Source of the DNA: a virus
Lineage: Duplodnaviria > Heunggongvirae > Uroviricota > Caudoviricetes
DNA length: 42,847 bases
Virus record (IMG/VR): IMGVR_UViG_3300045988_015629
Strand: one strand, 5' to 3'
This document shows positions 12,445 to 42,441 of the stretch, piece after piece. Numbering within the stretch: the stretch's first letter is position 1; every line of letters starts with the position of its first letter. The notes beneath the pieces are model-generated. The model had not been told where the DNA came from. It saw nothing but the letters and a program-made list of their open reading frames with translations, and did not search any database. A program made the position numbers and the translations under genes.

Positions 12445-12480
12445 GTGTAAATGAATAGTAGCTTATTCTATCTTAGTGTG
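12445..12480 (-). promoter_or_regulatory. conserved early-type promoter, divergent copy (TTGCAC-N17-TACTAT with embedded GAATAG dyad)
   Basis: Related to the 36-bp elements at 13744-13779 and 35655-35690. Confidence 0.45.
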
Positions 12481-12490
12481 CAAGTAAATT

Positions 12491-13743: not shown

Positions 13744-13779
13744 AGTGAATAGTATCCTATTATGTTGGGGTGTGCAAGA
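13744..13779 (-). promoter_or_regulatory. conserved 36-bp early promoter element (minus-strand TTGCAC-N17-TACTAT; contains GAATAG-N4-CTATTA dyad)
   Basis: About 33/36 identical to 35655-35690 in the opposite orientation. Confidence 0.55.
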
Positions 13780-22946: not shown

Positions 22947-23138
22947 ATGAAACACGAATACGACCGCAAACCAGCACGTGACATCGTACCGGGTGACATG
23001 ATTTTCAACGTTAAGACACGTCAACCTGTTGCCGTTGATACGGTGTTCGTCGAGTCGAACGGTAAACTGGTTATCGAAGATGTAACGGGTAACGTTACGG
23101 CGTTCGGGCGTAAAGAGCTGGTGCTGGTGGCGAAATGA
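22947..23138 (+). CDS. hypothetical protein (63 aa)
   Basis: ORF with AAGGAA RBS. Confidence 0.4.
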   Translation: MKHEYDRKPARDIVPGDMIFNVKTRQPVAVDTVFVESNGKLVIEDVTGNVTAFGRKELVLVAK

Positions 23139-23959
23139 ACTATTACAACGAATGGGATAAAGGCGCAGCCGCGTGGCTGCGTGAATTAATAAAACATGGT
23201 CACATACCTTTTGGAGTTGTAGATGAAAGAAGCATTACCGAAGTTAAGCCAGAAGACCTTGACGGGTTCACCCAGTGTCATTTTTTCGCTGGTATCGGCG
23301 GCTGGCCTCTCGCGCTCAGACTTGCGGGAGTTTCGGAGGATACGCCTCTCTGGACGGGAAGCCCGCCTTGCCAACCGTTTAGCACGGCAGGAAAACAACT
23401 CGGACAGTTCGACCCGAGACACCTCGCGCCGGTCTTCCTCGACATCATCAGCGAGTGCCGCCCTCCAGTCATCTTTGGGGAGCAGGTTGCGGCAGCAATT
23501 GCAAAATCGTGGATGTGCGATTTACAAGCTCACCTGGAAGGAGAAGACTACGCCGTCGGGTTTGCTGTTCTCCCAGCTTGTAGCGTCGGCGCACCGCACA
23601 AAAGAGAACGACTCTTCTTTGGCGCGCACGAACTGGCCTACACCGACAGCGAACGACTTCAGAGGGAGCGGAGAGACAGTGATTCGCACGGACGGGAGGG
23701 ACAGAACATTCGACAGGCTGGACTACTCAACAGAGCAGGGATTGAAAGCGAGTCAACCAACCCGCACCACGGCTTCTGGTCAGATGCTGACTGGCTCGGA
23801 TGCCGTGATGGAAAGTTCCGGCCGGTTGAACCCGGCGCATTCCCGCTGGCTAATGGGATACCCGCAAGAGTGGGACGATTGCGCGGTTACGGCAATGCCA
23901 TCGTCCCGCAAGTAGCCGCTGAATTTATAAAGGCATTCATGGGGGCGGTAAATGAGTAA
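23135..23959 (+). CDS. DNA (cytosine-5)-methyltransferase, compact (274 aa)
   Basis: Motif I FFAGIGG, motif [10 protein letters not shown] (catalytic Cys), ENV-like FGEQV, motif [12 protein letters not shown], motif X-like GYGNAIVP. Confidence 0.8.
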
Positions 23960-32010: not shown

Positions 32011-32492
32011 ATTCGTGGAAACGTTGATTGTGCAGTTCCGTAGGCTTTAAGGAAACACCCCAGCCCGTCACCATAGCAACCGTACAAATCCGGCAGATTG
32101 TTAATCAGGCACTGGTTCTCAAGGTCCTGGAACGGCGATTTCTCGGCGGTTGCCGTGAAAGTAATCGTCCAGTTAATCCCGTCTTCGGTAGACTCGGCGA
32201 TGGTGGATGTAATTGTTACCTGATAATCCTCGATACCCATGCCGAAGTCATGTGCCATCCAGAAACTTGACGCACCGCCGTCTACTTTTTCGAGGAACGA
32301 CAGAAACGCCTGTCGCCCCATTGCGGATGTAATCAGGGTTACGCTAACAGGGAACACGTCGTAATACGTGTCACGGCCCTGACGCACCCCGCCACCGGCT
32401 AAATCTACACTCCAGACGTTGTTACGTCTGGTCATTGAGTAGCCTTTCGATACAATTGGCTTAAGGCTACGTGGGAAATATAAGTCGCTCAT
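31992..32492 (-). CDS. minor tail protein (lambda M-like by position)
   Basis: Immediately downstream of the tape measure gene. Confidence 0.35.
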   Translation of the reverse strand: MSDLYFPRSLKPIVSKGYSMTRRNNVWSVDLAGGGVRQGRDTYYDVFPVSVTLITSAMGRQAFLSFLEKVDGGASSFWMAHDFGMGIEDYQVTITSTIAESTEDGINWTITFTATAEKSPFQDLENQCLINNLPDLYGCYGDGLGCFLKAYGTAQSTFPRIWDPMQ

Positions 32493-34780
32493 TATTTAAA
32501 CCCCGGCGCATTTCTTGTGGCTTTGCGGGCCTTGCTAATCTTGCTGTTGCTGTTCTGCAAAGAGGCAGCCACCTGCTCCTCGATGATGATTCGCAAACGG
32601 CCTTCATCATCTTGTTCGGTGGATACGTTGCCGATCTGAGAACTTGTGTTGTTTACGATAGTAACATTAGACGGGCCGGAAGAAGACCCGTTTTGCCCCA
32701 TAATTTCTTTCATCTGCTGTGCTGTGCGAACACGCGATGCACCCGCGGGCATGATAACTTCTGGTTTACCGCGTTCAGCGATAGTAGAAGCCTGCCCGGC
32801 GGATAACTGCCCACCCTGTTCACGTGCGGACCGGATAGCGGAAATCTGCGCCATACCTGCACCAACGGCAGCGGCAGCGGCTACAGGGGCTAGGAAGGGG
32901 CCAACAACGGGGATAGCAGCCGTTGACTTGTACGCTTCAATGGCTGCGGTGTATGTGGCGATAGTGGCCTGCACAATAGCGAATGCCTTATACGCACCAG
33001 AAGCCTCGCCCAATGCGGACCCGATGTTTGAAGCCATATTACCAAAGGCGGTTGCCGTTGCATCGGCACGTTTGGTTGCGTATTGCTCGTTGATGGCGTT
33101 AAGAGCGGCCTGATACTGCTTCTCGCTAATCAAACCCTGCTCGCGGTACTTATCCGCTACCGCCAGTTTCTGCTGTTCCTGGATGTCGAGAAGCTCAAGC
33201 TCAGTAGCGTTCTGACCCATAATCTGAGCCATGAAGTCGTCACCTTTCTGCTGCTTTTCCTGGGCTTCTTTCTGGCGTTTATCCAGTTCATCTTGTCGTT
33301 TTTGCCCGGCTTCGAGGACGATAGCTGTTTTAGCTTGTTCATATTCTTTCAGGGACAACGCGCCCTGGCTGTAGAACTCTTTTGCCTTAGCCAGTTTCTG
33401 CTGTTCCTGCGCGTCGATAGCCTTTAACTCGTCGTTGTTCTGACGGGCCAAAGTGTCGAGGTAATCTTGCGCCTGATTCCGCAATTGCTCTGCTTTCTTG
33501 GCGGCGGCTTTTGCTGCTTTATCGTCGGTTGTCCCCACCCCACCAGTTCCGCCCTTTTTATTAACAAGGCTGGCTAAGTCAATTTCTTGCTTCTTACGCT
33601 CGTCGTACTGCTTGCGCTGTTCCTCAATTTCTTTCTTACGCTGCTTAGACCTGTCGGTAATGGCTTGGGATTCGGCCTCTGCACGTTTTATACTGGCGTC
33701 GTATGCGGCATCAGCCTCTGCAGTCAGTTTTTTAAATGTGAGCGCCGACGTTTTGCTCGGGTCAAACACATCAGCAAGGGTCTGGCCTAACGCTACCGCG
33801 TAGTCGTCAATGCGCTGGAACCACGCAATAACCTCGTGGAATGTCTGCTGGATATCCGGCAACCACTCACGGATGGCATCCGGTATATCCCCCAGCGAGT
33901 CGGACATATCAACGGATTTGTCCTCGGTATCGAATGCCAGGTCGTTCAAGGCGTCAGAAATAAACTTGAACGACTCATTGAACAGTGTCACCCAATCCTG
34001 GAGCGTGGCGGAGATCTCATTGGACGCGATGGCGTCGGTGAGTGCGGTGATAGCATCTTCCGCTGTTGCCGCTTGTTCGCCTACCGCGTCGCCAAAACCG
34101 GATTGCGCTACCGCAAGAACAAGACCATCGAAGGAGTCCGCCAGGCTAGATAACTGACCATCTAAGGTCTTCGAGCGCGTCTCCATCGCTCCGGCGAAAT
34201 CAGTGTTACCGATATTTAGCAGGTATTTCTGAATCTCTTCGGAGTTCTTTTTAACCGTGGTCGTTACGCCACGGAACGTAAACGAAACTGTATCCGCCTG
34301 TTGGGAAGACTTGATACCGAACTCTTTTAAGCGCTCAAATTCAAATGTACTGGCGTCGGCAACTGCCTCAATCATTTGGTTAAGGTCTTTGCCCATAGCT
34401 GCGGCGGTGTTGCCGTAGGATATTAACGCCTCTTTGCTGGGGTTAAGACCTAGCGCCACGAGCTTGGTAAACCCCTCTACCGCCTGATTGAGGCCATACG
34501 GAGTTTCTTTTGCGAACTGTTGCAGGACGCTGAATGCCTTAGCAGCGTTCTCGGCGCTCCCGGTCATTGTGATGAGGCCGGAGTTCAGCTTATCGAAGTT
34601 GCGCTGGGAGTCCACCAGCGCACTGAACACCTGTTTGGCAGTTTCCAGACTGACAACGGCAGCGGCGGCGGCCCCCGCGGCTTTGGTAAGCCCGTTCAGT
34701 TGTGATGTGGTTTTATCGACGCCGGTCGATGATACTCGTACGATCAAGCTAGCGGTATCAGCCATGATTTCTACCTTCAA
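32492..34780 (-). CDS. tail tape measure protein
   Basis: 762 aa, predicted coiled-coil A/Q/K/E-rich repeats, preceded by a chaperone pair. Confidence 0.75.
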   Translation of the reverse strand: MKVEIMADTASLIVRVSSTGVDKTTSQLNGLTKAAGAAAAAVVSLETAKQVFSALVDSQRNFDKLNSGLITMTGSAENAAKAFSVLQQFAKETPYGLNQAVEGFTKLVALGLNPSKEALISYGNTAAAMGKDLNQMIEAVADASTFEFERLKEFGIKSSQQADTVSFTFRGVTTTVKKNSEEIQKYLLNIGNTDFAGAMETRSKTLDGQLSSLADSFDGLVLAVAQSGFGDAVGEQAATAEDAITALTDAIASNEISATLQDWVTLFNESFKFISDALNDLAFDTEDKSVDMSDSLGDIPDAIREWLPDIQQTFHEVIAWFQRIDDYAVALGQTLADVFDPSKTSALTFKKLTAEADAAYDASIKRAEAESQAITDRSKQRKKEIEEQRKQYDERKKQEIDLASLVNKKGGTGGVGTTDDKAAKAAAKKAEQLRNQAQDYLDTLARQNNDELKAIDAQEQQKLAKAKEFYSQGALSLKEYEQAKTAIVLEAGQKRQDELDKRQKEAQEKQQKGDDFMAQIMGQNATELELLDIQEQQKLAVADKYREQGLISEKQYQAALNAINEQYATKRADATATAFGNMASNIGSALGEASGAYKAFAIVQATIATYTAAIEAYKSTAAIPVVGPFLAPVAAAAAVGAGMAQISAIRSAREQGGQLSAGQASTIAERGKPEVIMPAGASRVRTAQQMKEIMGQNGSSSGPSNVTIVNNTSSQIGNVSTEQDDEGRLRIIIEEQVAASLQNSNSKISKARKATRNAPGFK

Positions 34781-35090
34781 AGATTGCTTCTAAGCCCATG
34801 ATAATGTCTATCTCGAACAGGCTAAGCTGTTTTTGCGTAACATCGAGATAGGCTTTCAGGTCTTGCCACGTAACGGATTCTCTTGCGAACAATACTACAG
34901 CGTCCTCGCGCACGTGTCGCGTAAACTTAATGTCGCAGTACGTCTCGAAGGTGGATATAAAAAGGGGCGGGCATTCTGGCCCACCCCGTCGCGCTGCACG
35001 TTTTTTCTTATCGATTACACCCATCGCGATAAGCGCCTGTTCGTGTCCGTCGGCTATAGAATCAAACTCTCTGATTTTATGCTTATCCAC
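34758..35090 (-). CDS. tail assembly chaperone T-like segment (possible -1 frameshift extension of the upstream chaperone)
   Basis: This frame is open from 35147, overlapping the end of the 35123..35539 ORF in the -1 frame; no ATG, track start is GTG. Confidence 0.4.
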   Translation of the reverse strand: MDKHKIREFDSIADGHEQALIAMGVIDKKKRAARRGGPECPPLFISTFETYCDIKFTRHVREDAVVLFARESVTWQDLKAYLDVTQKQLSLFEIDIIMGLEAIFEGRNHG

Positions 35091-35122: not shown

Positions 35123-35539
35123 CTACTTTTCCTGTAATGCTTTGCGCTCAGCGTTATGGAACGCTGCTACCTGTGTGCCTAATGCCTTGAACTGGTCCAG
35201 CAATTTGTTAAATGCTTCTTTAGAGAAAGGCTCATCAAAGCTCCAGCCGTTTACGACTTCTGCCGCGAGTTGCCGGTTGAGGTCTTCCGCCAGTTCGTTA
35301 ATAGCCAGGTTATATTCAGTATAGTCGCCGGATTCTTTGGCGGCTTTTTCCAGTTCTTCGAAACGCGCCAACCCGCGACGGTACGCAATAATGAAAGCAC
35401 GCCCCGCTTTAACGGCGACATCCGCATCGGGACTTACAACGTTAAGCCATTCACCGGAGTCTTCGCCGTTTGGCAGCAGAATGGGCATCTTCTTGCCTAC
35501 CAGTGCTTTCTCTTCGAAATAAAAATCAGAAAGTTTCAT
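35123..35539 (-). CDS. tail assembly chaperone (lambda G-like, inferred)
   Basis: Acidic 138-aa protein immediately upstream of the tape measure gene. Confidence 0.5.
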   Translation of the reverse strand: MKLSDFYFEEKALVGKKMPILLPNGEDSGEWLNVVSPDADVAVKAGRAFIIAYRRGLARFEELEKAAKESGDYTEYNLAINELAEDLNRQLAAEVVNGWSFDEPFSKEAFNKLLDQFKALGTQVAAFHNAERKALQEK

Positions 35540-35647
35540 TCTTTAATCCTTTGGTTAAGAGGTTACAGGTTAACGATAAATGCGCCAGACGGGAACCACC
35601 CGCTTTTCGTGTGCGACACTAGGCGCAAACTTATTCTATCACATTAC

Positions 35648-35690
35648 TTGCACACCCCAATATAATAGGGTACTATTCACTTACACCAAC
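35648..35690. promoter_or_regulatory. conserved 36-bp promoter element, divergent (plus-strand TTGCAC-N17-TACTAT for the island; minus-strand promoter for the chaperone/tape-measure operon)
   Basis: Reverse complement is about 33/36 identical to 13744-13779. Confidence 0.55.
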
Positions 35691-35691
35691 A

Positions 35692-35898
35692 ATGAAGGGG
35701 TTTAAAATGTCCAGTTTACCAGTTTCCTTAATTCTGTTTGCACTGCTCGCTTATTTCGCGCCTTTCCTGGTTGCGTACTTCCGTAACCATAAAGCGAAGT
35801 TAGCGATATTCATGGCTAATCTGTTTCTTGGTTGGGTTCTGCTGCCGTGGGTATTTATCTTAATCTGGGCGTGCAACTCGAATGTCAAAGAGAAGTGA
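35692..35898 (+). CDS. small membrane protein (2 TM helices)
   Basis: Two hydrophobic helices; RBS GAAGGGG before the second ATG at 35707. Confidence 0.55.
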   Translation: MKGFKMSSLPVSLILFALLAYFAPFLVAYFRNHKAKLAIFMANLFLGWVLLPWVFILIWACNSNVKEK

Positions 35899-35935
35899 GC
35901 TAGTATAGGACAAATCCTAAACACGAGGAATAAGC

Positions 35936-37066
35936 ATGGCCAGGAAGAAAATAACCGACGAACAGTTACAGGAAGAATTGAACGCCGGTATGAAGAATAT
36001 CGACATCGCCCGTAAATACGGCATCTCCGACCGCGTTATTCGTATCCGTAAAGCGAAGCTGGCTAAGAAAGGTGTAGGCCACGGGCGTGACGTTAGTTAC
36101 CTTGTACCGGACGGCTACAAGATTAAAGGAACGTCATCACTGGTGGATGAGTTTGGCAACACCAAGTTGCAATGGGTTAAGACCGACACCGATGCCGAAC
36201 GTCAGGTTGAATTGATGAAAGCCGTAATCGAAGGCATGAAGTCGGAGATTACACCAGTTGCACCTGTTAAAGCCGTTCGCGCCAAACGAGACGACAAGCT
36301 ACTCAACCTTTACACTGTGTCTGATTTCCATCTCGGTATGCTGGCCTGGGCTGACGAGAGCGGCGACGACTGGGACATGAAGATTGCGGAAGACCTGTTC
36401 TCCCGCTGGTTCGACGCAGCGTTCCAGAAAGCACCGGATGCCGGAACAGGAGTTATTAATCTGCTGGGCGACCTTGCGCATTTCGATAGTCTGGACGCCG
36501 TTACACCTGCCAGTGGTCATGTTCTTGACGCTGACACCCGCTATCAGAAACTTGTACGCTACATGATTCGTATGGTCCGCCGTGTCATTGATATGGCTCT
36601 CGTTAAACATAAAAATGTTCGCTTGCTTATCGTGCAAGGTAACCACGACGAAAGCGGAATGATTTGGTTAGCTGAGATGTTTAGTACGCTGTACGACAAT
36701 GAGCCGCGTGTGTTCGTCGATACGTCGCCGGATGTTTACAAGATGGTGCAACACGGCAAAACGACGCTGTTCTTCCATCATGGGCATAAAGCACGATTCG
36801 ACGCTATCGAACCGGTTATGATCGCCAAGTTCCGCAAAGCGTTCGGCGAGAGTGTTTACAGCTACGCCCACGTGGGTCACCTGCACCACCAAAAGATTGT
36901 AGAAAGCCGTAACATGATTGTTGAGCAACACCGCACTCTCGCGGCTAAAGATGCATATGCCTCCCGCGGTGGGTGGATGTCGGGCCGCAGTGCAAACGTA
37001 ATTACTTATAGCGCCGAATATGGCGAGGTCGCACGTTTAACTATTTCACCGGAGATGCTTGGATGA
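35936..37066 (+). CDS. calcineurin-like metallophosphoesterase with N-terminal HTH domain
   Basis: MPP motifs SDFHLG, LLGDLAHFD, VQGNHDE, FHHGHK, HVGHLHH; N-terminal 40 aa resemble a helix-turn-helix. Confidence 0.75.
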   Translation: MARKKITDEQLQEELNAGMKNIDIARKYGISDRVIRIRKAKLAKKGVGHGRDVSYLVPDGYKIKGTSSLVDEFGNTKLQWVKTDTDAERQVELMKAVIEGMKSEITPVAPVKAVRAKRDDKLLNLYTVSDFHLGMLAWADESGDDWDMKIAEDLFSRWFDAAFQKAPDAGTGVINLLGDLAHFDSLDAVTPASGHVLDADTRYQKLVRYMIRMVRRVIDMALVKHKNVRLLIVQGNHDESGMIWLAEMFSTLYDNEPRVFVDTSPDVYKMVQHGKTTLFFHHGHKARFDAIEPVMIAKFRKAFGESVYSYAHVGHLHHQKIVESRNMIVEQHRTLAAKDAYASRGGWMSGRSANVITYSAEYGEVARLTISPEMLG

Positions 37067-37548
37067 AAGATATTGTGATTTTCGATTTAGACGGGACATT
37101 GGCAGATGGTACTCATCGTTTACACCTGCTGCCGAAAGATAACTACGGCGAAACCTGGGCGTGGAAACCATTTAACATGGCGTGCAAAGACGATGCACCC
37201 ATTAAAGATAACATCGAACTGTGTAACGCCCTTAATCGTCGCTATGCCGTTATTATCTTAACAGGCCGTAGTGATGACGCGGAAAAAGAAACCAGAATGT
37301 GGTTGCAGCGCCACCGCGTCGAATTTTATCAGTTAATCATGCGCAGCAAACACGACAACAGAAAAGACATCGTAATTAAAGAAGAGGTGTTGCGTGCTAT
37401 TGGGCCGGAGAGAATCTTGTGTGCATTCGACGACTCTCCAGCGGTAATAAAGCATTTCCGCGAACTCGGCATAACCACTCACGCAGTTACTGAATACGAC
37501 TGTAACGGGAACTCTACACACTTAAAACCACATGGGAGTGATAAATAA
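37063..37548 (+). CDS. HAD-superfamily phosphatase
   Basis: Motif I FDLDGTL, motif II ILTGR, later K and FDDS acidic motifs. Confidence 0.75.
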   Translation: MKDIVIFDLDGTLADGTHRLHLLPKDNYGETWAWKPFNMACKDDAPIKDNIELCNALNRRYAVIILTGRSDDAEKETRMWLQRHRVEFYQLIMRSKHDNRKDIVIKEEVLRAIGPERILCAFDDSPAVIKHFRELGITTHAVTEYDCNGNSTHLKPHGSDK

Positions 37549-38102
37549 TGGCTAAGGTAATTATTCTTAATGGTCCTGCGGGCTGCGGGAAAGACACACT
37601 TGCTAGGGCGCTGGTAGAAATGGGCTTTGCGAAGGGTGTCGCCAGTTTCAAGAATCCGATGTTCAATATTGCTATGGCTGCGTTAGGCCAGGATGCTTAC
37701 CGCGAGTTTCTCGACGGCTACGACGACCGGGCGCGGAAAGAAAAGCCAGAGGGTTTCCTTAACGGGTTGTCTCGGCGTCAGTTCATGATTGCCATTTCCG
37801 AGCAATTCATTAAACCGGTGTTCGGTGATGATTATTTCGGTAAGTATCTTGCCGGAAACTTGCCCGACGGCGACGAAGTTTTTGTGGTGTCTGATGGCGG
37901 GTTCGCCAGCGAAGTAGCCCCTATCGTTGCCGCGGGGCATGATGTGAGAATCGTCCGCTTGCACAGAGACGGCCATACGTTTGAAGGGGACAGCCGCGGT
38001 TACCTGTACGATATTGATGGTGTAAAAGATTATGACACCTACATCATACCGGGTTACGTTAAATCGAACGCTATAGGCATTGCTTTAAGATTAGGTTTGT
38101 AA
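37548..38102 (+). CDS. P-loop nucleotide/polynucleotide kinase (dNMP-kinase-like)
   Basis: N-terminal Walker A VIILNGPAGCGKDT; the GKDT variant is reminiscent of phage dNMP kinases. Confidence 0.7.
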   Translation: MAKVIILNGPAGCGKDTLARALVEMGFAKGVASFKNPMFNIAMAALGQDAYREFLDGYDDRARKEKPEGFLNGLSRRQFMIAISEQFIKPVFGDDYFGKYLAGNLPDGDEVFVVSDGGFASEVAPIVAAGHDVRIVRLHRDGHTFEGDSRGYLYDIDGVKDYDTYIIPGYVKSNAIGIALRLGL

Positions 38103-38133
38103 GAAAAAGGCCCCAAACGGGGCCTTAGTTTTA
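38103..38133. terminator. bidirectional rho-independent terminator at the island/major-tail convergence
   Basis: GGCCCCAAACGGGGCC hairpin flanked by AAGAAAAA and TTAGTTTTA; same stem as the 25576-25608 terminator. Confidence 0.75.
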
Positions 38134-39303
38134 TGCGTATGTGATACGCTGAATAACAATAGACGACTGGTACTGGTTGCCAGTAGCCTGGCCTTCAATA
38201 GACTGAGTGATTGACTCAGGTCCTCCAATCTCAGGTGTAACCGCCGTAAGTTCTGCACGTTTCAAACTGAAAGACATAGCCCCATTTACCCCAGCCAGAA
38301 TAGAGTTAATCTCCACCTGCTGCTCGTTGATAAACTTCTGAATCATCGCCATGTCGTACAGCTTACCGGAGATGGAGAAGGTGTTAGCTGCTCGGCTACG
38401 CTCCACAAACGCTACGTTAGTGTTGCCGAGTTCGAACTGTGCGGACGCGCTGTTGTCGTTGGTGATGGTCAGGCTGTCGCAACGCAACGGCGTAGAACCG
38501 TCGAACACAGAAACATCGACCGAGGAGAATGGCTCGTCACCAAACGTAACAGAGGAGAAATCAGAACCAGACGGCTGCGTGGTGAGAATCTCCTGACTGC
38601 GACCGATGAACGGGAAGCTGCCAGTTACCATAGCGTTAACAGCCTGTTCGATGGTAAAACCAGAAACTTCCACGCCTTTGGTTAGTGTGTACGCGTCAGT
38701 CCCGCCGCACTGGCCTTTGTACCAGGTGAGAATAGAGAACGTCTTGCACTGGCTTCCCGTTTCCAGTTTATCCCCTGTCTTAGCGGCGGTAGTTACTGTC
38801 TCTGTGGTCAGGGTATGCTGGATACCCGCCCCGGTCACTACCAGCGCCTCTACTGCAGTTACGATAAACGGTTTTGCGTTGTCACCGGTTAAGTCGGTAA
38901 ACGCAATCAGGTCGCCCACTTCAACGCCGTCAGAAATAAAGCTACCTTCGGCACGGGTAAAGGTCTTGCCTGCAGGCGCGACGGTAATTGATAGCCTGGT
39001 CAGAGAACTACCGGATTGCCATGTAGAGCCTAAAGCACCCGCCAGCCAGTCGTCCTGGCTTTTCGAGCTAAGCTCAATAGCGTATTCTCCGCTAACCTGC
39101 TTGTTACCGGTGCGGATTGACGTAGTTTCACGGCTGCCGTCCAGTTCGTTGGAGGTCAGCGTGTCGCGGGTAATGGCAGGAACGCCACCTGTGTTACGCA
39201 ATGGCGACCAGACCGGGTTAGTCGGTGTTACGCCAGGGGTAGTTTCTGCCACATAGAATTGCGCAGTATTCGCGCCCTTAAAAGGAGTTGTAGCCATATT
39301 CAC
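38131..39303 (-). CDS. major tail (tube) protein, putative
   Basis: 390-aa protein at the end of the head-tail joining cluster and upstream of the chaperones. Confidence 0.5.
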   Translation of the reverse strand: MNMATTPFKGANTAQFYVAETTPGVTPTNPVWSPLRNTGGVPAITRDTLTSNELDGSRETTSIRTGNKQVSGEYAIELSSKSQDDWLAGALGSTWQSGSSLTRLSITVAPAGKTFTRAEGSFISDGVEVGDLIAFTDLTGDNAKPFIVTAVEALVVTGAGIQHTLTTETVTTAAKTGDKLETGSQCKTFSILTWYKGQCGGTDAYTLTKGVEVSGFTIEQAVNAMVTGSFPFIGRSQEILTTQPSGSDFSSVTFGDEPFSSVDVSVFDGSTPLRCDSLTITNDNSASAQFELGNTNVAFVERSRAANTFSISGKLYDMAMIQKFINEQQVEINSILAGVNGAMSFSLKRAELTAVTPEIGGPESITQSIEGQATGNQYQSSIVIQRITYA

Positions 39304-41691: not shown

Positions 41692-42441
41692 TCACCCCTT
41701 CTTACAGTTATCAAAGTGCCACCTCTTTAGAAGAGATAGCGCCCCTTCGGTTCCGCAATGTGGGCATACCCCGCGCGGGCGTTTCATTCCAGTAAGTTTA
41801 TCTGAAATTTTCTTGACAGTCTCGCCCTTTAACGTATGGCCCTTCTTAAAACTTCCGGAGTTAGGTTTTCTATTAACCTTGCCAACGATTCTATTTGGGT
41901 CCGCGAACTGGCATTTCTTGCAGCAATATTTACGCGCTCGTGATTTAAAACGGTAGGGGATCGGCTGGTCGCATGTTACACATCGTTGTGGGTTTGCCAT
42001 GTAATGCTCTATTCTGGCTTTTCTACTTGCAGTTTCCCCGGTAGCAATTCCTTTATTCCACGCCTTTTGCCCTAGATGTGCTTGTCTGAGATTTTCTATA
42101 CGTTTATCAGAAAATTTAACACCAGTATTCAACCTGGACATCTCTATAGCCCAAGCCTCTTTCGCCAACTTAAAGGAATGTGAGGTAACTTTTGACCTTT
42201 GATTGTTTTTAGGGTTAATACACATAACCCTCCAGGCGAAAGCTAGTTCTTTAGTCCCGTGTATCTTATAGAGAAGCCAATGCGCAATAAAATGCTGTCT
42301 AGCGCTCAAAGATACAATATTGTCAAAAGTATCTCCACCACCCATGCATTTCGGGACTATGTGATGTTTTTCGGTATACCCACTAAACGGATTGATTTTT
42401 GCGTTCGATATTAACTGTTCATAGATTTTGGCGTAGTTCAT
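41692..42441 (-). mobile_element. HNH homing endonuclease (free-standing)
   Basis: HHIVPKCMGGGDTFDNIVSLSARQHFIAHW is a canonical HNH motif; C-terminal CxxC pairs; gene is visibly AT-richer than its flanks; TGGTATAAT-like extended -10 upstream. Confidence 0.85.

Follow-up and report, generated by a model that had tools for sequence, protein, structure and literature searches.

A K1G-like Kagunavirus carries a metallophosphoesterase, a phosphatase and a dNMP kinase in an opposite-strand tail-operon cassette, a possible early module for DNA breakdown and nucleotide recycling

Phages T1 and TLS break down host DNA and reuse its nucleotides, and the genes responsible have not been identified (PMC11447400). 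In phage T5, host DNA degradation requires the protein A1, which also suffices for it; A1 is a predicted metallophosphatase with a reported structural likeness to nucleases of double-strand-break repair and to proofreading subunits of polymerases (bioRxiv 2026.04.02.716235). The T5 enzymes Dmp and Dnk act on deoxynucleoside monophosphates (dNMPs) (bioRxiv 2024.12.20.629578). A mycobacteriophage metallophosphoesterase (MPE) degrades host DNA (PMC12287305). Among the Drexlerviridae, an MPE gene belongs to a persistent gene module (508 of 522 phages), and genes for a 'polynucleotide kinase' and a dNMP kinase often follow that for the exonuclease, an arrangement suggested to enhance nucleotide supply (PMC13164509). 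Here we analyse a cassette of four plus-strand genes in a 42,847-nucleotide (nt) stretch of viral DNA (IMG/VR record IMGVR_UViG_3300045988_015629), referred to as the window. Gene 1 encodes a small membrane protein, gene 2 an MPE fused to a helix-turn-helix (HTH) domain, gene 3 a HAD phosphatase and gene 4 a dNMP kinase.

For this cassette we describe how the genes, promoter and terminator are arranged, which families and folds the proteins are assigned to, which catalytic residues are conserved and how modular its distribution is. By analogy with T5 A1, Dmp and Dnk, we lean towards reading genes 2–4 as an early module for DNA degradation and dNMP recycling.

By sequence, the window is a Kagunavirus, a K1G-like coliphage. 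The 3-kb region around the cassette is 99.8% identical to that of Escherichia phage vB_EcoS-UTI89UKE1 and 98.4% identical to that of phage K1G, and the cassette region has matches in 199 phage records, most of them from Escherichia or Salmonella phages in the subfamily Guernseyvirinae. In MT711525, an annotated Kagunavirus relative with 72 annotated genes and 99.7% identity over the cassette region, the four genes are named superinfection immunity protein, metallophosphoesterase, putative polynucleotide kinase/phosphatase and putative deoxynucleotide kinase. As the genes and their layout are in GenBank under nearly the same names, and a published account of T1-like phages covers the enzyme trio, the cassette does not represent a new kind of system.

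The HTH-fused metallophosphoesterase

The MPE is composed of an HTH domain (residues 8–44; 35957–36067), a β-hairpin and helix (residues 61–103) and a catalytic domain (residues 119–376; 36290–37063). Its AlphaFold2 model (pLDDT 93.9) comprises a three-helix N-terminal bundle, a linker, the β-hairpin and helix, and a catalytic domain with the calcineurin-like binuclear metallophosphoesterase fold. Nearest to the model are three DNA nucleases, PolD DP1, SbcD and Mre11. The predicted structure is that of an Mre11/SbcD-type nuclease subunit, a likeness supported with a modest margin. Neither the MPE nor the kinase found more in the PDB than marginal matches or matches confined to the P-loop, whether a single sequence or a profile was used as the query, and structure prediction was needed for both.

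All five motifs of the calcineurin-like superfamily (DxH, GD, GNH, H and GHxH) are present. Residues D130, H132, G178, D179, N236, H237, H282, G314 and H317 are invariant among 65 diverse homologues, which are 33–50% identical to the query; because the metal-binding and catalytic residues are invariant, the family is likely to be catalytically active. The MPE scores below the gathering thresholds of Pfam Metallophos (18.9 bits versus 21.5) and Metallophos_2 (21.6 versus 27), and it represents a divergent family, recognized through structure and motifs rather than through a Pfam model. This family, phrog_704 (E = 4e-167), is found in 2051 phage records (tblastn), nearly always at full length including the N-terminal domain; in metagenomes, clustering at 50% leaves 4630 representatives. 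HTH domains of the GerE/LuxR/FixJ type are matched weakly by the N-terminal bundle, which is conserved throughout the family; the presence of this domain points to DNA as the substrate of the MPE.

No Rad50/SbcC or DP2 partner is found among the annotated genes of MT711525, so the MPE is not a member of those complexes. A role in degrading cyclic nucleotide or oligonucleotide signals, directed against CBASS, Pycsar, Thoeris or type III CRISPR immunity, appears exceedingly improbable: the fused DNA-binding domain is conserved across the family, the best structural matches are DNA nucleases, PADLOC returned no match for the MPE, the known signal-degrading folds of anti-defence proteins are unrelated to it, and the persistence of the MPE in Drexlerviridae (PMC13164509) suits a housekeeping role.

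The stand-alone phosphatase and the dNMP kinase

Gene 3 matches the Pfam family HAD_PNKP (PF25109) with 72.1 bits against a cut-off of 27.6 (E = 7e-20). A profile built from 15 homologues and searched against the whole PDB retrieved 4xrp (1e-14), T4 5uj0 (2e-10) and 1ltq (8e-9), all of them Pnkp phosphatase domains, with one further match that is marginal and unrelated (E = 0.007). The catalytic motifs of HAD enzymes (DxDxT, S/T, K/R and DD) are all present; invariant are D8, D10, G11, R19, H21, T67, K106 and D124, and near-invariant T12, G68 and D123. There is no fused polynucleotide 5'-kinase domain of the T4 PseT type, the protein being a stand-alone chain of 161 residues. The same profile aligns with T5 Dmp over the N-terminal half (hhalign 86%, E = 5e-6). 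Among the characterized relatives, T4 Pnkp acts on 3'-phosphates of nucleic acids and nucleotides, and T5 Dmp acts on dNMPs; related to both, the window enzyme could by homology have either a 3'-phosphate or a 5'-dNMP as its substrate.

By predicted fold and family profile, the kinase is a T4 gp1-type deoxynucleoside monophosphate kinase and not a polynucleotide kinase. Within its P-loop, G14, K15 and D16 are invariant, and K15 is the catalytic residue in a characterized phage dNMP kinase (bioRxiv 2024.12.20.629578).

The Pnkp kinship raises the question of whether the cassette is an end-healing set for nuclease-cut tRNA or DNA ends, in which the kinase would add a 5'-phosphate and the phosphatase or phosphoesterase would remove a 2',3'-cyclic phosphate or 3'-phosphate. 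The phosphatase is truly related to the phosphatase domains of T4 and Capnocytophaga Pnkp, it sits beside a P-loop kinase in 35 of 80 loci (see below), and many records label it polynucleotide kinase. Against this stand the dNMP-kinase fold of the kinase, the position of the MPE on the Mre11/DP1 side of its superfamily and not on the phosphoprotein-phosphatase side, a gene order and two-gene split unlike Pnkp, and the annotation of MT711525, which holds no RNA or DNA ligase. We regard end healing as very unlikely.

Another possibility is that the phosphatase and kinase manage immunity that senses or depletes nucleotides, by replenishing deoxynucleoside triphosphates (dNTPs), by removing dNMP signals or their precursors, by a Dmp-like action against Kongming or by removing m6-dAMP. 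Phage dNMP kinases trigger Kongming, and T5 Dmp, a dNMP phosphatase with a DxD motif, counters Kongming and co-occurs with dNMP kinases (bioRxiv 2024.12.20.629578); the PUA-Cal-HAD defence is set off by m6-dAMP that is freed as host DNA is degraded (bioRxiv 2026.01.15.699771). The window phosphatase is related to Dmp and, in the same 35 loci, its gene lies next to that of the kinase or within ~1 kb upstream of it. However, the parallel is purely analogical, the phosphatase is closer to the 3'-specific Pnkp phosphatases than to Dmp, and in more than half of the 80 loci the kinase has no phosphatase with it. Such a role in immunity seems to us quite improbable.

Cassette structure, promoter and terminator

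The cassette is inserted on the opposite strand of the tail operon (Table 1). Genes 1–4 match their PHROG families with E-values of 5e-23, 4e-167, 8e-67 and 4e-46, respectively; given these values and the matches in 199 phage records, they are not chance open reading frames (ORFs). Genes 2 and 3 overlap by 4 nt (ATGA, 37063–37066) and genes 3 and 4 by 1 nt (TAATG, 37546–37550), an arrangement that resembles a translationally coupled operon.

Table 1 The cassette and its flanking features in the window.
Feature	Position	Strand	Basis
Sigma-70-type promoter	35648..35676	+	-35 TTGCAC 35648–35653, 17-nt spacer, -10 TACTAT 35671–35676
Gene 1, superinfection-immunity-type membrane protein	35707..35898 (63 aa; mechanical ORF from 35692, 68 aa)	+	PF14373, phrog_1039
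Gene 2, HTH-fused binuclear metallophosphoesterase (MPE)	35936..37066 (376 aa)	+	phrog_704, motifs, predicted structure
Gene 3, stand-alone Pnkp-clade HAD phosphatase	37063..37548 (161 aa)	+	PF25109; DLDGT residues 8–12
Gene 4, T4 gp1-type dNMP kinase (predicted fold)	37548..38102 (184 aa)	+	P-loop GPAGCGKDT residues 9–17
Two-way intrinsic terminator hairpin AAGGCCCC-AAAC-GGGGCCTT (GGCCCC type)	38107..38126	both strands	terminator calls and folding
Major tail (tube) protein gene, upstream flank of the insertion	38131..39303	-	ORF; tail tube protein in MT711525
Tail assembly chaperone and frameshift extension ORF, downstream flank	35123–35539 and 34758–35090	-	ORFs; chaperone and joined frameshift product in MT711525
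Tape measure gene	32492–34780	-	ORF

The promoter sequence TTGCAC-N17-TACTAT is matched perfectly at three sites in the window and no others: 35648 (+), 13749 (-) and 12455 (-). Common to the three are the 29-nt core and a downstream TTCAyTTA, and in alignment the extended motif runs from -35 to about +8. The sister copies (12455–12483 and 13749–13777, both on the minus strand) bear the conserved extension CTTGCACAC...TACTATTCAyTTA, and a ribosome-binding site and a small ORF lie ~25–30 nt downstream of each. The three copies look like the early promoter family of the phage, and an identical promoter type stands upstream of the cassette in other Kagunavirus loci. Since the sister copies precede runs of small early-type ORFs, 'conserved early-type promoter', the term used in an earlier note on this DNA, is a fair label, and the cassette would be expressed early.

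At the other end of the cassette is a hairpin with folding energies of -19.2 and -15.5 kcal/mol on the two strands (z -4.1 and -3.4 against shuffled sequence) and a T-run that is stronger on the minus strand. Judged from these features, it terminates the cassette on one strand and the major tail protein gene on the other. A similar GGCCCC hairpin closes the shorter Jerseyvirus cassette.

The cassette and its two-way terminator break the minus-strand tail operon ahead of the chaperone and tape measure genes, and no sigma-70-like minus-strand promoter was found upstream of the chaperone gene (window 35540–35700). Within the frameshift-extension ORF of the chaperone, just ahead of the tape measure gene, is a terminator-like hairpin on the minus strand (34964–34987; GGGGTGGGC...GCCCGCCCC followed by TTTTT; nine pairs, eight of them G-C), which could serve transcription attenuation or be linked to the frameshift.

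The earlier note, which was made from the letters of the window alone, had described four plus-strand genes interrupting the minus-strand tail module, a divergent promoter and a bidirectional terminator, and each of these is borne out by the ORFs in Table 1, by the promoter copies and by a hairpin that is called on both strands and folds far better than shuffled sequence. Its account of the proteins also stands. The five motifs that it assigned to an HTH-fused MPE are invariant in the 65 homologues; the SbcD/Mre11 flavour that it saw in SDFHLG and GNHD agrees with a model closest to DP1, SbcD and Mre11, albeit by a modest margin; and the DLDGT of the phosphatase and the GKDT of the kinase are present and conserved. 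Structure prediction, which it had proposed as a check, returned a confident MPE model with DNA-nuclease neighbours and a dNMP-kinase fold for the kinase. The two transmembrane segments given for gene 1 correspond to two hydrophobic helices, with the start of the gene moved from 35692 to, probably, 35707.

The membrane protein encoded by gene 1

Gene 1 matches Pfam Imm_superinfect (PF14373) with 48.3 bits against a curated cut-off of 27.9 (E = 9e-13), and phrog_1039, 'immunity to superinfection' (E = 5e-23). Its hydrophobic segments lie at about residues 9–29 and 38–60, and Kyte-Doolittle windows of 19 residues exceed 1.6 at about residues 4–31 and 36–63. The true start is probably the ATG at 35707 and not the codon at 35692, because an AAGGGG ribosome-binding site lies 6 nt upstream, MT711525 is annotated with this start and the spacing is as at the sister promoters. 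By analogy with its family, this T4-Imm-type inner-membrane protein most likely keeps the DNA of superinfecting phages from entering the cell, independently of the three enzymes.

The first gene of the cassette is not constant. K1H-type Kagunavirus and Jerseyvirus AG11 carry there, behind the same promoter, an unrelated protein of 108–109 residues that belongs to phrog_14165 and has no Pfam match (L009:3997–4323 in a K1H-type locus and L007:3609–3938 in AG11, corresponding to window 35692–35898). This protein begins with a signal-peptide-like segment (MRKLVLALGLMSFATFGAPC...), and it may be an alternative exclusion protein.

Distribution and modularity of the cassette

Eighty kinase-centred IMG/VR loci were compared. 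All three enzymes are encoded in 23 (16 of them Kagunavirus-like), the phosphatase and kinase without the MPE in 12, and the kinase alone in 45; the phosphatase gene adjoins that of the kinase or lies within ~1 kb upstream in 35. Webervirus carries the trio in unchanged order; it closes the replication module and is followed by the lysis genes.

In Jerseyvirus, the tail-operon slot holds an immunity gene and the MPE gene, with different cargo behind them: AG11 has a 76-aa gene there, and horsemountain has an HNH endonuclease gene, the 76-aa gene and a gene for an Ant-like protein. The 76-aa gene was considered as a kinase remnant and ruled out (BLASTP E = 63); it belongs to phrog_2452. In alignment, the window and AG11 are near-identical up to the stop codon of the MPE gene and unrelated beyond it, and a similar GGCCCC hairpin ends both cassettes; an identity that breaks at the stop codon indicates a clean cassette swap. 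An immunity gene and the MPE gene appear to be the common core of the cassette, with the phosphatase and kinase genes exchanged in Jerseyvirus.

Among 75 tail-protein-centred loci with a chaperone gene, the MPE gene stands in the gap on the opposite strand in 40 (with the phosphatase and kinase in 13), an immunity gene alone in one, and neither in 34. Eight of these 34 have the tail and chaperone genes directly adjacent (-96 to ~100 bp), several others have gaps of ~250–1600 bp, one of which was inspected and holds six small opposite-strand ORFs, and two have an MPE fragment ~7 kb away. The tail operon of more distant relatives is uninterrupted. This survey, together with the cargo swaps, indicates that the junction is an insertion hot spot, that the cassette is lineage-specific and that its cargo is modular. 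The cassette thereby provides an example of a tail-operon junction used as a swap site for cargo genes that are probably expressed early. Base composition bears no sign of recent foreign origin, the GC content being 0.43–0.54 within the cassette and 0.48–0.55 in its flanks.

Two MPE alleles are found in Jerseyvirus, the AG11 type (85–89% identical to the window MPE) and the Jersey/horsemountain type (~55%), and the Dhillonvirus MPEs (~75%) are nearer to those of Kagunavirus than is the second Jerseyvirus allele. Together these relations point to exchange of the MPE gene between phage groups.

The strongest rival explanation follows from this distribution, namely that the MPE serves replication or recombination of phage DNA, through DP1-like proofreading or Mre11-like end processing, and that the phosphatase and kinase are unrelated neighbours acting on the nucleotide pool. 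Bxb1 gp47, another phage MPE, is required for phage DNA replication. The MPE gene of T1-like phages closes the replication module, after the helicase and methylase genes, within the module that persists in 508 of 522 Drexlerviridae (PMC13164509), and the MPE also occurs without the other two genes. On the other side, a Rad50/SbcC or DP2 partner is missing from the annotated genes of MT711525, the PolA of Kagunavirus comes with a DnaQ-like exonuclease of its own, Bxb1 gp47 belongs to a different family, and genes 2–4 appear translationally coupled, as a trio that recurs in Webervirus. We think a replication role rather unlikely.

Proposed role of genes 2–4

The reading that we prefer is that of an early module for DNA breakdown and dNMP recycling. 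The cassette would be a self-contained early unit, inserted on the opposite strand between the major tail protein and chaperone genes of a Kagunavirus, in which a host-type promoter of the kind driving the small early genes of the phage would transcribe four genes up to a two-way terminator. The MPE would be a metal-dependent DNA nuclease of the Mre11/SbcD/DP1 branch, brought to DNA by its HTH domain; its most likely task is to break down the host chromosome, the alternative being some other processing of DNA ends. The phosphatase could then strip blocking phosphates, either 3'-phosphates from DNA ends or nucleotides, or the 5'-phosphates of dNMPs as does T5 Dmp. Released dNMPs would be converted by the dNMP kinase to deoxynucleoside diphosphates, from which the host nucleoside diphosphate kinase would make dNTPs for phage replication. 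We infer the substrates, the early timing, host DNA as the target and the cooperation of the three enzymes.

Several observations weigh against this reading, and the demonstrable separability of the three enzymes is its main weakness. The kinase stands alone in 45 of the 80 loci. Jerseyvirus, Dhillonvirus and Warwickvirus carry the MPE without the phosphatase and kinase, as does a Vibrio phage. In phage T1 the MPE gene (ST16, 40.8 kb) is 35 kb from the phosphatase–kinase pair, in which an HNH gene separates ST64, the phosphatase gene, from ST62; the product of the latter, a P-loop protein of 190 residues at the corresponding position, is probably the kinase. A homologous kinase was deleted in phage Rao1 with no apparent fitness cost (bioRxiv 2024.12.20.629578). 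Finally, A1 is not recognizable among the top viral structural matches of the MPE in a BFVD fold search, and homology between the two did not reach significance, at 19% (profile–sequence) and 23% (profile–profile, hhalign, over the HTH region only), so that the T5 parallel stays an analogy. Usable literature on the essentiality of MPE-family genes (HIDEN-SEQ, phage Tn-seq), or on the genetics of host-DNA degradation in T1, was not found.

Measured against the functions that the earlier note had listed, nucleotide-pool remodelling, which came last there, is the best supported. Nucleic-acid end healing is not supported, given the kinase fold, the branch of the MPE and the lack of a ligase, noted already there and upheld by the 72 annotated genes of MT711525; degradation of cyclic-nucleotide signals finds no positive support in a protein with an HTH DNA-binding domain and no PADLOC match. 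The assumption that the three enzymes form one pathway is weakened by the T1 split, the replacement in Jerseyvirus and the solitary kinases. 'Accessory island' holds for the insertion, which is lineage-specific with variable cargo, but not for the MPE itself, which is persistent in T1-like phages (PMC13164509).

The T5 A1 result makes the MPE family an obvious candidate for the nuclease that attacks host DNA in T1-like phages, and the value of the present analysis is a testable candidate for this role in T1-like and related phages. In the boldest form of the proposal, the MPE destroys the host chromosome in T1-like and related small siphoviruses and, with the phosphatase–kinase pair, forms a one-operon salvage system whose Dmp-like phosphatase trims dNMPs against Kongming or PUA-Cal-HAD; this stronger version is speculative and, taken as a whole, rather unlikely.

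Other features of the window

An Rfam scan of the whole window returned zero RNA families. PADLOC found the four cassette proteins unrelated to known defence-system components, P-loop noise aside, and NCBIfam gave nothing further on them. Among the head–tail connector genes is a 249-aa ORF (41692–42441, minus strand) that carries a motif of HNH type, matched by Pfam HNH below threshold (E = 0.0025). No obvious counterpart was noticed in the gene list of MT711525, and the ORF probably represents an inserted homing endonuclease gene. Two long ORFs on the plus strand overlap in different frames (23135–23959, 274 aa; 23223–23915, 230 aa), and MT711525 annotates this pair as a cytosine methyltransferase and a second, 'Mte8-like' methyltransferase.

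Comparison with known systems

Gene 1 shares with T4 Imm (PF14373) the build of a small two-helix membrane protein and scores above the family threshold. It differs in having only 63–68 residues, in being the first gene of a cargo cassette and in being swapped in K1H-type relatives for the unrelated 108-aa protein of phrog_14165. Compared with Mre11/SbcD and the archaeal PolD DP1, the MPE has no recognizable capping or OB domain and carries instead an N-terminal HTH domain and a β-hairpin; sequence similarity is marginal (profile E = 0.17).

T4 Pnkp (PseT) acts with RNA ligase 1 in tRNA repair against the PrrC anticodon nuclease. Its phosphatase domain is homologous to the cassette phosphatase, with DxDGT, (S/T)GR, RKD and DD motifs, and in both systems a P-loop kinase stands beside the phosphatase. 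In the cassette, however, phosphatase and kinase are encoded by two genes, their order is reversed, the kinase belongs to the predicted dNMP-kinase type and no ligase is annotated in MT711525.

The MPE of cluster A mycobacteriophages (A10ZJ24 gp48/Bxb1 gp47) is likewise a phage MPE with five motifs, expressed early, and it damages host DNA (PMC12287305). Homology with the window MPE was rejected (hhalign 6.5%); the mycobacteriophage protein, of ~255 residues and without an HTH domain, is from a different family.

T5 A1, Dmp and Dnk together bring the same three chemistries as the cassette: an MPE-type nuclease, a DxD phosphatase and a dNMP kinase. The proteins that A1 is reported to resemble, repair nucleases and proofreading subunits, are the top structural neighbours of the window MPE (bioRxiv 2026.04.02.716235), and some A1 homologues have N-terminal HTH domains, as does the window MPE. 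The A1 family has an MPE-like motif pattern (D304xH306, N396-H397, H476 and H501xH503), yet its catalytic domain is not detectably homologous to that of the window MPE, and only a local NHD-x3-S-x-WL motif is shared. Dmp, which destroys dNMPs, is detectably related to the cassette phosphatase. In T5 the genes are dispersed and their timing is set by DNA injection in two steps, whereas the cassette is one operon. A1 has been described as mostly confined to Demerecviridae (bioRxiv 2026.04.02.716235). Proteins 43–49% identical to A1 were seen on phage contigs of about 44–52 kb, including two T7-like contigs (L091:6001–7605 and L092:6001–7680; 44 and 45 kb) with S-AdoMet lyase, primase-helicase and PolA, in which the A1-like gene lies in the replication module near a dGTP_diPhyd_N gene; other homologues listed have N-terminal HTH Pfam domains.

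The run 'DNA repair exonuclease – polynucleotide kinase – dNMP kinase' of Drexlerviridae, as in Webervirus, ends the replication module just before the holin, endolysin and spanin genes, whereas the cassette lies inside a tail operon on the opposite strand; the Webervirus run also has no immunity gene and no dedicated promoter–terminator pair, unlike the cassette. The two are nevertheless built of the same three families in the same order and orientation (PMC13164509), with identities of 41–48% for the MPE, ~57% for the phosphatase and ~46% for the kinase.

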